Part shown: positions 2,757 through 55,570 of the stretch, piece after piece
Position numbering within the stretch: the first letter of the stretch is position 1
Layout of the letters: the number at the start of each line of letters is the position of its first letter
Assembly: GCA_964016885.1 (NCBI GenBank)
Contig: OZ024743.1
Coordinates: forward strand, 18,786,001-18,850,000
DNA length: 64,000 nt
Direction of reading: 5' to 3'
Source: Eledone cirrhosa
Lineage: Eukaryota
Made by a program: the position numbers and the translations under genes
Notes under the pieces: generated by a model
Database searches by the model: none
Told to the model about the DNA's origin: nothing
Seen by the model: only the letters and a program-made list of their open reading frames with translations

Positions 2757-3114
2757 TATATATATATATATGTGTGTGTTTGTGTGTATGTGTGTGTGTG
2801 AGAGAGAGAGAGAGAAAGCGATATGTTTATGAACAAACATTTGAAAGCCTCTAGCTATGAGTTTTCGAGACTGAGGCGAAAACATGTATTTTTGACTCCT
2901 ATGTACTAGGGTAGATTGAACTTATTTGCATATAGAGATGTCGGTGGCTCGGCCAGAAAAGACAATATATCGTTAGATAAATAAAATACTCATACTTTTG
3001 CGTATACAGTTATGTGTCAGCGAACATCTGTATGTGTGGTTACCCACAATTGAGTCCGGAACTCACACACACAGACACACTTCTTCCGGTTCCGTATAAC
3101 CATGAAGATCCGCT

Positions 3115-4135
3115 AATTATCAAAGTTAAGTACTCCACCTGTTTGCTGAAAATCATGAATGTTTCATTCTTATAGAATTCTAGTAATAATCAGGAACCAG
3201 CAACCACTCTGTATAATCAGTTCCTGATTATTACTAGAATTCTATAAGAATCAAACATTCATGATTGTCTGCAAACAGGTCGAGTACTTAGCTTTGATAA
3301 TTACCAAAAAGTACGAAACAGAGCTCTGTCAGCTTTATCTGTTTGCTGAAAATTTAAAGTAAGTGAGACTGTCACTACTCTAAAACAATAGCGTAAGGTC
3401 TTCGAAATGATTATAATTTAGCATACAGTGTATTGCAAAATACACTATATATACATTCATATATATATATCGCTATTTCAGAGCAGCAATTCTAATTTTC
3501 AATTTCTACTTGACCGGCAACCGCTCTGAATAATCAGTTCCTGATTATTACTAGAATTCTATAAGAATCAAACATTCATGATTTTCAGGAAACAGGTGGA
3601 GTATTTGGCTTTGATAAGTACCAAAAAGTAGGAAACAGAGCTATGTCAGCTTTATCTCGCCTGTTTGCTGAAAATTTAAAATAAGTGAGACTGTCACTCT
3701 CTAAAACAATGGCGTAATGTTTTCGAAATGCTTTTAATTAAGCATACAGTGTATTGCAAAATACACTATATATACATTCATATATATATTGCTATTTCAG
3801 AGCAACAATTCTAATTTTCAATTTCTGCTTGACCGGCAACCACTCTGTATAATCAGTTCCTGATTATTATTAGTATTCTATAAGAATCAAACATTCATGA
3901 TTTAGAGCAAGCAGGTGGGAGTGCTTAGCTTTGATAAGTAGCAAAAAGTACGAAACAGAGCTCTGTCAGCTTTATCTCCCATGTTTGCTAAACATTTAAA
4001 GTAAGTGAGACTGTCAACACTCTAAAACAATAGCGTAAGGTCTTCGCAATGCTTTTAATTAAGCATAAAATCTATTGCAAAATACACTATATATACATTC
4101 ATATATATATCGCTATTTCAGAGCAAAAATTCTAA
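3115..4135 (+). mobile_element. Retrozyme-like tandem array: about three ~318-nt non-coding monomers, each with a hammerhead, preceded by an inverted ~83-nt piece (3115-3197)
   Basis: Predicted cleavage sites after 3330, 3647 and 3967 (periods 317 and 320). No long ORF. Ends in (TA)n. Confidence 0.85.
3290..3334 (+). ncRNA. Type I hammerhead ribozyme, U3:A8 variant (further copies at 3607-3651 and 3927-3971)
   Basis: AGCT-TTGATAA-[consensus GTAC caaaaa GTAC]-GAAA-CAGAGCTCTG-TC^AGCT. Palindromic stem III, GUC triplet, stem I extended by CAGCAAACAGG / CCTGTTTGCTG-type pairing. Confidence 0.85.
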
Positions 4136-4158
4136 TATATATATATATATATATATAT

Positions 4159-4895
4159 CGACCAATCTCTTCACGGATTACACATATGTGAACCTTGATC
4201 CAGAGAATCCACCGCATCCACCGGATTTTACTCAGCATTCCACCACATATTTTTACGGAATTACCTTTATGACTCACCCCACACAAACACCCAACAAAAT
4301 TTGTTTTCCCACACGCCACCTACATCCACAACACGCATAAACACCACACACACACGTGCGTACCACCACATATTTACACATTCAGCCTCCGGAATCCTCT
4401 GCCCCCAACCCTCTATCCACACACGCACACACACTCCGACCTACACCCAACCGCACACACACCTCTTCCTGAACACGCCACCCCGTTCTTCCCCCAACCC
4501 TTGCTTTCACATACACACACACACACGTACACCTACACACACACACCATCTTCAGTCCTCCCCGCTCAGACACCCTGTCTCCCTCTCCCCACTCCACCCG
4601 CCACCAGCCATACACGTCCCACACCCTTCCACCACCTGTTTCACCCCATTTTAATTTTATTTTGATCATGCCTTTATTTTTAATTTTATTTGTACCGTTT
4701 CCTCTCACCCCCTTTTTGCTATATGTCTCTCCACCACTCCCCTACACACCCTTTGAACTCTATTCCCACACACTTTTCACCTGAAGAAGGGCTTATGCCC
4801 GAAACGTCATTCCCCACCACCACCCCACTCTCAATACCGGAAAATTAATAAACCTTTGTTTGTACTGCTTCTCTGCTTTGTTCCCGTTCAATTTT

Positions 4896-4900: not shown

Positions 4901-9656
<4,756 letters not shown>

Positions 9657-14301: not shown

Positions 14302-14640
14302 GTGAGGTTTTTTTTACAAATTGAAAAATAACCGAGGTGTCCTACACGAGTGAAAGTATAAAGAAAAAGAGATGAAATCCAAATTGCAACTGGAGTCTTA
14401 TTATTTTTTTAAATATATATATTTATTTGGTTCCTTTACCGGTTTCGCAGTTCTTCTGCTTTTCAAAAGTAGAGTTGAGATGGAGGGTCTGTTGTTTTTC
14501 TCACATCTGGTTGGTCGATGAATGTTACTTGTTTTATATGGAAAAAGTGGCTCGAAATGCCAGGTTTTTCGAGAAGTAATTTGATTGGTTGGTCAATAAT
14601 TATAATACATTTCGCGCCAGTTCGCGTTACATTAGTTCTT
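14296..14640 (-). mobile_element. PLE pLTR fragment with minimal HHR (14434-14469, U3:A8 variant)
   Basis: Minus strand CTT-TTGAAAA-GCAG-aagaa-CTGC-GAAA-CCGG-TA^AAG followed by AATAAA. Abuts (TA)n. Confidence 0.6.
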
Positions 14641-18338: not shown

Positions 18339-18545
18339 TATGTATATATAAATGGAAGAGAATGAAACGAAATTTCATTTCTCACGCTTAGTACGGCACT
18401 TACTTAAATGTAAGTATGTATGTATGTATACGTACATACATATATGTATATGAACTCACTCGATATGCAAATTAGGCTGCTCAGCCGTTAATATGCATAA
18501 GGAAAGTATATACTTTCAGACGTTCAACCATCTGGCAGGAAGGTA

Positions 18546-18590
18546 TACGATGCTGACGATAGCTTATAAGCTTGAAACTAGTACATCGTA
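18546..18590 (+). ncRNA. Minimal type I hammerhead ribozyme
   Basis: TACGATG-CTGACGA-T-AGC ttataa GCT-T-GAAA-CTAG-TA^CATCGTA: 7-bp stem I, palindromic ACTAGT stem III. Confidence 0.85.
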
Positions 18591-18820
18591 CCTGTGTCAG
18601 TGTTGAACAAAAAGGTGACGTGGTTGCCTAAACACTGTACGGCGTAATTCGTGCTGTTTGTTTGTTTACAAAGAAACAAACCGACCATTATAATAAATGT
18701 TCGCTAAACCGATACGTGCATATATATATATGTTTGCATGTGTGTATATATATACATACTACTGTACGTCTGTATGTCTGTATACATATATGTATGCACC
18801 TATACATACATACTTACATT

Positions 18821-22347: not shown

Positions 22348-22385
22348 GCCCTGATGAGTCCTTAGTAGGACGAAACATTGTTGGC
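22348..22385 (+). ncRNA. Minimal hammerhead ribozyme at the end of a PLE-like 3' region
   Basis: GCC-CTGATGA-GTCC ttagta GGAC-GAAA-CATTG-TT^GGC, then AATAAA at 22387. Confidence 0.8.
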
Positions 22386-22445
22386 TAATAAATACTTTTG
22401 ATGTATTGAAGGCTTCTTTGGTTTATTTCTTAATATATATATATA

Positions 22446-23021
22446 TTGGAATAAATGCTCTGAAATAGCGATATATATGTGAATATAGACATAGAATATT
22501 CGAAAATACTCTGTATGTTTATAATAAACATTTTGAAGACCTAATCGCTATAGAATAGAATACGTCACGTATTACAATTAGATTCTCGATAAAAGCAAGG
22601 GAAGTAATCTACGCGTTTCATTCTTATTAGAAATCTTCAGGACCACATATCCAGTGCTTTTATCGAGAATGACACAGCTAGAGACTTATAGAATACTTAG
22701 CTGTGTACAGGAACTGGTTTGAAAGAGCGGTTGCCGGTCCGGCAGAAATTAGAAATTGGAATAAATGCTCTGAAATAGCGATATATATGTGAATATAGAC
22801 ATAGAATATTCGAAAATACTCTGTATGTTTATAATAAACATTTTGAAGACCTAATCGCTATAGAATAGAATACGTCACGTATTACAATTAGATTCTCGAT
22901 AAAAGCAAGGGAAGTAATCTACGCGTCTTCAAAATGTTTATTATAAACATACAGAGTATTTTCGAATATTCTATGTCTATATTCACATATATATCGCTAT
23001 TTCAGAGCATTTATTCCAATT
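22446..23021 (-). mobile_element. Retrozyme-like subfamily 2: about 1.5 tandem 310-nt monomers (minus) plus an inverted terminal piece (22927-23021)
   Basis: Period 310 (22446/22756). Homologous to the 3115 family (GACCGGCAACCGCTCT, CGCTATTTCAGAGCA, GGTCTTC.AAATG). Confidence 0.85.
22582..22670 (-). ncRNA. Type I hammerhead with extended, bulged stem I
   Basis: Minus strand ATTCTCGATAAAAGCA...GGTC-CTGAAGA-T-TTC taataa GAA-T-GAAA-CGCG-TA^GATT...TGCTTTTATCGAGAAT (16-bp distal stem). Confidence 0.85.
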
Positions 23022-34308: not shown

Positions 34309-38121
<3,813 letters not shown>

Positions 38122-38169
38122 TATATATATATATAAATAAATATATATATACATATATATATATACAAT

Positions 38170-38513: not shown

Positions 38514-39630
38514 ACAGTATTTACGTATCGAGAGAGAGTAAAAAAAAGGTGAGGATAGGTGATACATAGTTATTTTCAAGTAGCGTATGCCAAAGGTGCT
38601 CGATACTAGTGCCGGCAGTATTAAATATTCGAAGTGTTAATATTTAGTGGGCTAGAGAGTTAGCAGAGCGTTAGCACGTGGGAAAGTAAGAAATCGGGGA
38701 ATAGACCGTTAAAACATGTTTATTTAAAACGGCACCTACGTACATTTCGCCCAGTTGGGATTCTCAAGGGCATAAATAATCAAAAGTGTTCCTTACATTG
38801 CTCGAAAATAGTTTTTGGGGTTAAATCCACGTCAAAGTTCATTGCTTGCAAAAATAGATTGTTTTGATTTTGCAGCAGAACCTGTGTAATATTTGTGCAA
38901 TCATACAAAACTTACATGAATTAAATAAAGAAATCCAATAAAAGAATATGTTGTTATTTTTTCATTTAAATCGTATGATCTTACATAAATCTATATCACT
39001 TCAACTAGGCCAAAATGTGATGCAATGAATATAACATTTTTATTATTATTTAAGACGGCGTTGCTTTGTATTATAACAGAAGTACATTTCGTAAATTTGC
39101 GTACCCTTCATTCATATATAAATTATTGTGTTTTTTTTTAACTAAATGGAAATAATATGAACGACTCTAAAAAGTCACATGCATGAAATTTGCCTAGACA
39201 TTTTAAGTTATATTTCTACTGTGCCCAGCGTTTACTATTGTAACTTATTCAATGAGTTGTTAAATGAGTGAACATGGGTTGACAGTCGAATGAAGGTTAG
39301 GAACGATCTGCAAAATTGTAAGACAGTCGATTCATACAATAAATATAACTTTAAATTGAAGTAATTTTTGAACTCTTAACATTCATTGAACATCACCAAA
39401 TGTTAATTTTCCTTTCTGTCTCCTTACACTGATAGACTACAGTAAAGATGCATCCGGAGGTTTGGCTGAATTGTTGTAGCCTTGGACGTGATGCTTTATG
39501 GTATTTGGATTGAATCGTTTCATCCTGATTAAACATCGTGAATATTTGCAGTTCAACATTATATACACATGTATTCTTTTAGGAATCAGAGCCACACACT
39601 CCCCGCTTTAGCCGAAAATTATCGAAGCTG

Positions 39631-39787
39631 GATTCTTATAGAATTCCAGTAATAATCAGGAGCTAATTATAAAGAGCGGTTGCCTGTACAGCATAAATTA
39701 GGTATTAGGATTCATTAAACATACGGTATATTGCCAAATATACTATACATACATTCATGTATACACCGCTATTTCAGTGCACCAATC

Positions 39788-39792
<5 letters not shown>
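39631..39792. mobile_element. Retrozyme-like subfamily 3 fragment, inverted arrangement
   Basis: Minus part GATTCTTATAGAATTCCAGTAATAATCAGG..GAGCGGTTGCC, then plus part ...CGCTATTTCAGTGCACCAATCCTAAT into (TA)n. Confidence 0.7.
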
Positions 39793-54653: not shown

Positions 54654-55570
54654 TAGTGTATGTATTTATTTATATATGTATATTTATTTATACTTTTCTT
54701 AGGTCAGTATTGTTTGTTTGGGTTTGTTGTTATTCAATTAATTTTTTCTGTTTAGCATTGGCCTTCTAAGTTCTATTTCGACCGCCTCTCTGATATGACC
54801 ACCTGCTGGGTCATTTCTATGTTTAGATATTATGCTAATTTCTATGTTGTCTATGTTACCGTCGTGTTGTTGTCTGGCATGGTCGTATAGTACCGAACCG
54901 TTTTTTCGTCCTTTGAGTTCCCCCCAGTGTTGGTCTATATTTTCACCTATGCTACGAGCTGTCTCGCCTATGTATGTTGTCATGTTTCTGCTAGTACCCT
55001 CTGTACATCTTATGCTATAGAATACGTTTCTAGTTTTACAGTTTATCCGGGGGTTTAAAACAATACTGACTAAGAGAAGAATAAATAAATAAATAAATAC
55101 ATACACAAGCACATTAAAAACAAACACATATAAACACACACTAGTAAACTAAGATAGAATACAATAACCAATACACATTCACCCAAACACGAACACACAT
55201 CAAACAGTATGCACACACGCAAACGCATGCGCAGAGAAGACAACAAATATTTAAATAAACAAATAAATAAACAGACTAATTAAAGATGGCGTAGGCATAC
55301 AATACAACGGGAGGAAACATAATAGCACCACTGACGATGTTGCAGATGTGCAACCAAAGAAATTTTGTTAGACTTTATATATGTGTTTGTGTCTATATTA
55401 TATCTGTATTTTTGACCGTTGGTCAGTAAATGGTAACGTTGAGGACCGAATAAATTAAATTAACCGATATAAAAGAGACAGAACCGAAAACCAACCAAAT
55501 AGTCAGTGTGTTTTGTTATTAATTCTGGCAATATTATTACACAAATATTACCCTCCCCAAGTATAACAAT
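54654..55570. mobile_element. Older family A PLE, inverted: minus GIY-YIG fragment (to ~55055) plus pLTR on the plus strand
   Basis: NPRINCKTRNVFYSIRC...YIGETA on minus. Ends CCCTCCCCAAGTATAACAAT(TA)n. Confidence 0.85.

Follow-up and report, generated by a model that had tools for sequence, protein, structure and literature searches.

A non-LTR retrozyme family of Eledone cirrhosa with Penelope-type insertion ends and an RNA fold probably kept by compensatory change

Metazoan non-LTR retrozymes, described from coral, mussel and axolotl, consist of tandem non-coding units of 150-450 nt with a GC content below 50%, each unit bearing one type I hammerhead with a weak palindromic helix III (PMC7229834). 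In the accessible text of that source, the RNAs of the three animals are processed by their hammerheads, ligated by a host ligase and found as circles, and several families can share a genome. A 2020 review stated that animal retrozymes show no motif revealing the retrotransposon that mobilises them (accessible text of PMC7761336), and a 2026 preprint still calls the mobilisation mechanism open (accessible text of bioRxiv 10.64898/2026.07.22.740005). The latter derives Xenopus retrozymes from the pseudo-LTRs (pLTRs) of Penelope-like elements (PLEs) and proposes a PLE helper. As far as the accessible portions of the PLE literature go, PLEs have a tail at one end, an inverted 5'-truncated arm and microsatellite targets (PMC8557442), and they have non-autonomous derivatives, MRC1 among them, with multiple copies arranged head to tail (PMC8557442, PMC11167929). 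A PLE protein in purified form is able to cut both strands and to extend them, starting at two internal sites whose interval corresponds to the tail; for these in vitro start sites the accessible text reports no strand difference (PMC11167929).

We analysed 64,000 nt of contig OZ024743.1 of E. cirrhosa (GCA_964016885.1, positions 18,786,001 to 18,850,000; hereafter the window). Three of its loci, named A, B and C after their lineages, are members of a single family of non-LTR retrozymes in which we distinguish at least six lineages (Table 1). The family resembles the coral, mussel and axolotl elements in its tandem, non-coding units of low GC content (32-39%), its single type I hammerhead per unit and its weak palindromic helix III, and the U-U at the base of helix II also occurs in axolotl HHR_Amex2 (PMC7229834). 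Arrays reach ~30 units. The hammerhead core is present in 27 of 30 units examined, in which the longest stop-free stretch is 40-71 codons and there is no protein-coding frame. No LTR layout was seen in the mapped insertions, and an Rfam scan at gathering score returned no hits. Circles and cleavage, experimental in PMC7229834, are here predicted from sequence; conversely, the main text of that paper is silent on head-to-head arrays, (TA)n targets, a tail and covariation between lineages, all of which are described below.

Table 1. Coordinates of retrozyme and Penelope-like features in the window (position 1 is its first letter)
Feature	Position	Strand	Remark
Lineage-A insertion, main arm	22445..22931	minus	~1.57 units of 310 nt
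Lineage-A inverted second arm	22925..23021	plus	97 nt; head-to-head with main arm, 7-nt overlap
Lineage-A type I hammerhead	22604..22646	minus	sequence and predicted fold
Lineage-A hammerhead stem I	22646-22641 with 22609-22604	minus	
Lineage-A hammerhead core CTGAAGA	22640-22634	minus	followed by stem II
Lineage-A hammerhead GAAA	22619-22616	minus	followed by ACGCGT; triplet GUA ends at 22610
Lineage-A hammerhead predicted cut	between 22610 and 22609	minus	
Lineage-A hammerhead stem III			palindromic, 2 bp; predicted to need a dimer
Lineage-A distal stem I	22582..22670	minus	22670-22655 pairs with 22597-22582
Lineage-A hairpin	22954..22971	plus	7 bp and 4-nt loop; inside inverted arm
Lineage-A hairpin, sense-arm copies	22821-22804 and 22511-22494	minus	
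Lineage-A main arm, tail	22445..22470	minus	26 nt, between two fixed 3' end points
Lineage-A second arm, tail	22995..23021	plus	no (TA)n past its end
Target tract at end of lineage-A main arm	22433..22445		short (TA)n
Lineage-B insertion, inverted arm	3112..3197	minus	
Lineage-B main arm	3196..4136	plus	2.9 units, ~90% alike; tail end into (TA)n
Lineage-B U3:A8 cores TTGATAA	3294, 3611, 3931	plus	
Lineage-C fragment, inverted arm	39585..39712	minus	ends within ribozyme core
Lineage-C fragment, short arm	39711..39792	plus	GCCA hairpin; tail end into long (TA)n
Neptune-type element, head-to-head copy	34987..38123		tail-less left end, tailed right end, both in (TA)n; candidate helper family, separate from the retrozyme

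The original prediction compared these three loci by their ribozymes, distal stems and one hairpin, and re-reading the sequence found each of its strings in place. The lineage-A ribozyme reads CTGAAGA/ACGCGT/GUA on the minus strand as claimed, with the qualification that A cores come in two common forms, CTGAAGA and CTGATGA (the latter in 21 of 54 A loci). At locus B the TTGATAA cores are accompanied by ACAGAGCTCTGT/GUC, save for the second (3611), which has GCTATGTC instead, and the distal stem I strings are as quoted. All three hairpins exist (folding energies -2.3 kcal/mol for A, sense copy 22821-22804; -5.7 for B; -3.8 for C), but the one quoted for lineage A reads so on the plus strand, in the inverted arm, and the G of GAGTATT is not the state of the lineage: this variant is rare (2 of 54 A loci have it fixed), and the family reads GAATATT. 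Nor does an appeal to common stable tetraloops hold across the family. The loops are TTCG (A), GCAA (B), GCCA (C) and ATCA (D); GCAA is a GNRA loop, the last two are neither UUCG nor GNRA, and TTCG in lineage A is closed by U-A, not C-G. A stable UUCG tetraloop (cUUCGg) needs a C-G closing pair. The locus at 39631, previously used as a comparison unit, is in fact a truncated lineage-C copy with two arms and no full unit; it keeps the first 5 ribozyme core bases only and has no complete ribozyme. The lineage-A insertion has one complete ribozyme only. Beside it, a minimal hammerhead followed by AATAAA (22351-22433, plus strand) lies tail to tail with the insertion at the shared short TA tract; similar minimal motifs occur at 4781 (plus) and 38767 (minus).

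Across the 3.0-Gb genome there are 14,987 exact matches to a 21-nt motif of the A ribozyme, spaced 310 nt where they are consecutive in arrays, and 26,029 to a 14-nt motif common to all lineages; a retrozyme copy was present in 4 of 60 evenly spaced 10-kb stretches. From 420 loci, which are mostly best matches to chosen queries and not a random sample, 241 distinct full units cluster into A (80), A' (38), B (37), E (27), C (32) and D (24), with three singles. The majority units of the six lineages are 310, 312, 315, 317, 318 and 319 nt long; the monomer length first given as 310-320 nt holds for lineage A (310) and needs slight widening for B (317-321), for an overall range of 310-321 nt. Identity between lineages ranges from 61 to 96% (majority A/A' versus B, 61-62%; A versus A', 96%), and within-lineage distance is 1.3% in A and A', 5% in B and E, 9.5% in C and 12% in D. 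In a tree of 33 natural units, D, C, E and B form a ladder and A/A' sits on a long branch. A suspected seventh lineage (a 311-nt array) turned out to be an A variant with one extra base. Every unit of an array of ~15 units near C1 1.24 Mb has one extra base just past the predicted cut. Internal Pol III boxes were considered and dropped, since the units contain T runs. Four of six listed sequencing runs, all contigs of unknown library type, were compared with the A unit; one gave 494 contigs and three a single 340-nt contig wrapping the unit, and as such contigs are also expected from tandem DNA, we draw nothing from them about expression or circles. Three runs filed under other organism codes each contained one clean A-unit contig at low depth, for which contamination, related species or transfer could each account.

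The ends of the insertions carry a tail, a feature described as unique to PLEs. Among the 42 lineage-A loci first mapped, 31 are head-to-head, with fixed ends that run into (TA)n. In 26 of these, one arm stops near unit position 309, within an AT run inside the unit, and its partner near position 25; of the rest, four have one other or cut-off end and one, the insertion in the window, has two tail ends, the single such exception. Exact junctions number 1026 with and 1222 without the tail genome-wide. Pairing was assessed in the first 222 Mb of C1 with 79 tail ends (those of 100 listed tail junctions lying within the span of the other list) and 100 listed tail-less ends: all 55 pairs of outward-facing neighbours within 20 kb comprised one of each. 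Lineages B, C and D share the same two end points, 26 nt apart, and the region between them contains the most conserved motif of the whole family. Copies of these lineages, for which the boundaries are loose, comprised 30 with a tail and a tail-less end, 8 with two tails, 1 tail-less twice and 21 with another end. Most central junctions, where the arms meet, show an overlap, and the longest lie at the element's own inverted repeats: overlaps of 12-48 nt were seen in 11 of 44 distinct junctions, mostly on these repeats and three on the distal stem, in a set that lists one junction twice and in which 12 of 50 loci were chosen for having both end types. Target-site duplications are unreadable in (TA)n. 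The two arms use different start sites, and this junction evidence is stronger than the structural point with which the comparison began. Within the literature available to us, no report of such end structures for animal retrozymes was found.

The genome also contains a young family of Neptune-type PLEs, with ORFs of ~1200 aa, a YVDD motif and copies 97-99% identical. They are called Neptune-type on the basis of a CX4CX2C linker before a C-terminal YIGET motif; this linker is the criterion for the Neptune clade and is shared by Nematis (accessible text of PMC8557442). Pfam searches of PLE fragments gave a weak RVT_1 match only. All 8 bipolar copies with both ends in (TA)n have one tail each, and a ninth has one tail and another arm that runs on. 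More copies lie in the window at 793-2236, 2688 and 54738-55570. The Neptune-type tail is the start of the element's own ORF, so that the element, of unit length ~4.1 kb, is circularly permuted. An uninterrupted 1141-aa reverse transcriptase frame at 6156-9581 (plus; RVT_1, zf-RVT) belongs to an unrelated non-LTR element.

The retrozyme has in common with Neptune-type PLEs and their non-autonomous derivatives the inverted 5'-truncated arm, the tail at one end, the microsatellite target and the hammerhead (accessible text of PMC8557442 and PMC11167929). In contrast to these PLEs, it has no ORF and both of its arms can be many units long. Its tail is 26 nt, against the 30-40 nt that the published PLE accounts available to us give and ~46-60 nt in the local Neptune-type element. 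Whereas MRC1-type elements generally have 3' similarity to an autonomous element, as far as those accounts go, none was detectable between the retrozyme and the Neptune-type element tested: a retrozyme profile had no hit in one full Neptune unit, and in the 750 nt past 31 PLE ORF ends, a search covering some of the genome's PLE families, the only weak hit was to another small ribozyme repeat. The Xenopus retrozymes are of the same class. There the case for a PLE helper is made from co-occurrence and from homology to pLTRs (24 of 57 families), whereas here it is made from junction anatomy, and no pLTR homology was found; the accessible text of that preprint makes no mention of a tail, covariation or compensatory change (bioRxiv 10.64898/2026.07.22.740005). 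The most probable helper is a Neptune-type element of recent age, and the family with copies in the window is a candidate for it.

Sequence variants within arrays bear on the template. In 54 lineage-A loci (~364 units; two of the loci cover one array), 18 distinct variants are fixed in all covered units, usually on both arms, 4 are partial and 66 occur in single units (0.0006 per base). The 18 loci of lineage A' have 4 fixed, 43 single and 11 partial variants, with 8 of the partial ones in one ambiguous locus. The arrays read through 318 cut sites, and in the mapped arrays neither arm starts nor indels are concentrated at the predicted cut; arm starts within 3 nt of it number 0 of 90 against 2.0 expected, a count that is weak by itself. 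Since variants are mostly either array-fixed or confined to single units and no arm starts at the cut, the template is probably a monomeric, and probably circular, RNA. At one locus, a single case, a variant occupies alternate units (2 of 4) on both arms, a pattern that a dimeric circle would allow. Array-fixed A>G changes were found at 7 strongly paired A-U positions and T>C changes at none (one site polarised with A' as outgroup); changes confined to one unit comprised 11 A>G and 15 T>C, and two G>A changes also fell at paired sites. We rejected this excess as a sign of A-to-I editing, since tolerance of G-U predicts the same and the sample (72 loci) is too small to separate the two; the literature yielded nothing specific on such editing in retrozymes. 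That editing of the structured RNA may feed a rewriting of helices by the lineages, from A-U through G-U to G-C, seems to us an unlikely extension.

The ribozyme had been said to change as a whole between subfamilies. Its core letters UGA, A9, GAAAC and GU in fact stay, and lineages C, D and E bridge A and B; these intermediates rule out replacement of the ribozyme by recombination. Read from the aligned sequences, the ribozyme is one that diverged stepwise in place and was not replaced. The 3:8 core pair is intact in 30 of 30 rows (20 CG, 10 UA), being C:G in A, A', C and E and U:A in B and D. As B and D are rejected as one clade (AU p 2e-113), this distribution implies at least two double changes between C:G and U:A. 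Cells of the hammerhead stems are paired in 90.6% (stem I), 81.5% (stem II) and 96.6% (stem III). The same core covariation is known from the U3-A8 hammerheads of Schistosoma PLEs (accessible text of PMC4209133), there in minimal PLE ribozymes; here U3-A8 stands in full ribozymes and was switched at least twice within one family. On the opposite strand no stem-bearing ribozyme was found in 30 of 30 units, with antisense matches only in B and E and lacking stem II.

When the structure of one lineage-A copy was projected onto an alignment of 30 units made from sequence only (five from each of six lineages), 94.6% of 1641 cells were paired. Covariation was seen in 18 of 55 pairs, which had changed on both sides, compared with 2-5 pairs (34-43% paired) in slid-partner controls; 8 of 500 shuffles reached 18, and kinship of the units inflates such counts. 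The distal stem I (13 pairs) was paired in 97.4% of cells across the six lineages with 7 pairs double-changed, stem I had 5 of 6 and the tetraloop hairpin 2 of 6 such pairs, and the two helices framing the tail showed almost no variation. An unguided consensus fold gave 19 of 48 pairs double-changed. When pairs from A were tested in B, 15 double Watson-Crick changes were found among 41 changed pairs against 4.6 +/- 2.0 expected, and 11 of 12 cross-lineage directions reached p <= 0.05. A stricter test, restricted to pairs with both sides changed, gave 13 of 16 from B to A (7.2 expected, p 0.003) and 13 of 17 from A to C (7.8 expected, p 0.009); over the 12 directions, four fell below 0.05, one was at 0.055 and seven, mainly from the old lineages C and D, were not significant. 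Six related lineages provide few independent events for covariation. Circular folds of 8 representative units were branched and more stable than those of 30 shuffles each (z -4.2 to -6.3), and antisense folds were about as stable (z -2.5 to -6.2). The excess of G-U over A-C was weak (27:13 recurrent, 102:86 rare variants, Fisher p 0.16; 8:9 in D), and strand asymmetry was dropped as proof of selection on the sense RNA.

Together, the covariation and the consensus folds support the proposed long-term selection on RNA structure, including at the non-helical 3:8 core pair, where repair of DNA palindromes cannot explain the covariation. The claim that the subfamilies keep the fold stands for its skeleton but not for its details: in consensus folds made independently, A and B have 36 of 73/64 pairs in common and A and C 21 of 73/43, and in place of two lineage-A hairpins B-E form different local ones.

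Other small hammerhead repeats were also noticed. A second family (18465-18820, plus; core at 18553) ends in (TA)n, has ATGCAAAT ~88 nt upstream of its core and includes one copy that matches the retrozyme profile at E 5e-4, so that it may be a remote relative. The promoters of newt satellite 2 contain an octamer. A third family has a 467-nt tandem spacing, a palindromic CTAG stem III, the ATGCAAAT octamer upstream and inverted copies beside it. A fourth small element at 14466 (minus) has a U3:A8 core, head-to-head copies and end points ~60 nt apart that run into (TA)n.

We consider it probable that these elements are non-LTR retrozymes whose fold is kept by compensatory change, and that a PLE reverse transcriptase/endonuclease likely inserted them by copying a monomeric, probably circular RNA. 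Tandem transcripts would be cut by their hammerheads, as dimers in lineage A, and the cut monomers ligated into circles. A PLE enzyme would then nick both strands of a TA tract and start one cDNA at each of the two sites; each cDNA would be extended around the circle, across the ligated cut site, and microhomology, often at the element's own helices, would serve to join them. Every new lineage would pass through this RNA step, at which the fold would be selected. Of nine predicted Xenopus retrozyme dimers, eight gave no cleavage in vitro, according to the accessible text of the preprint (bioRxiv 10.64898/2026.07.22.740005). More tentatively, as a real possibility rather than an expectation, an enzyme of Penelope type, acting as a dimer, may bind a single 310-nt RNA circle that has no sequence in common with the enzyme's own RNA, begin a cDNA at each end of the 26-nt single-stranded tail between the two conserved helices, one per target strand, and copy the circle repeatedly in each of the two reactions, building a head-to-head satellite of up to ~30 units in one event. 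The same PLE-type insertion could instead use linear RNA, either a multimer from read-through or a cleaved monomer with end-to-end jumps, without circles and with arrays that may grow by unequal crossover. The purified PLE protein did use unprocessed RNA and had no need of the hammerhead (accessible text of PMC11167929), the growth of retrozyme arrays by unequal crossover, in the manner of satellites, has been discussed (accessible text of bioRxiv 10.64898/2026.07.22.740005), and in one long array 6 of 26 units have a variant, lying in neighbouring pairs as expected of a later duplication. However, rare variants fixed in all units on both arms need a one-unit bottleneck, neither arm starts nor indels pile up at the cut site, and the ribozyme core is held by covariation, all of which make a linear template rather improbable.

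Two further readings concern the RNA structure itself. The paired changes might stem from DNA or cDNA template switching between inverted repeats, or be kept for the joining of cDNAs rather than for RNA folding; the long junction overlaps on the element's own repeats and distal stem, the equal stability of antisense folds and the weak G-U bias all agree with this. We nevertheless find it very unlikely, because covariation extends to the 3:8 pair and the short stems I and II, none of which is a palindrome arm, G-U pairs are retained as the state of whole lineages, and strongly paired A-U sites show array-fixed A>G changes at 7 positions and no T>C. The original prediction had pointed to a viroid-like replicon lineage, multiplying from RNA to RNA with genomic copies as by-products. 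A small, structured, probably circular RNA with a hammerhead would suit such a replicon, and it has been considered that retrozymes might replicate from RNA to RNA (accessible text of PMC7761336), yet the fold is branched, no unit has an opposite-strand ribozyme, young arrays differ by ~1%, the lineages form a ladder of rising age as in SINEs, and the ends are typical of a retroelement (55 of 55 end pairs). With thousands of retro-inserted DNA copies, replication that bypasses DNA is not needed, and we regard a viroid-like replicon as extremely improbable.

The retrozyme class is already known and a PLE origin has been argued for it (bioRxiv 10.64898/2026.07.22.740005), and covariation alone is what any retroelement with an RNA stage would show; the junction evidence is the part worth following. 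Within the family, nature has provided a series of mutants of a single ribozyme, in which a double change of the core recurs. The family's junctions carry the PLE tail and indicate that arrays were made at insertion from a single unit, and the exact start sites, together with a named candidate enzyme, are at hand for a direct biochemical test.
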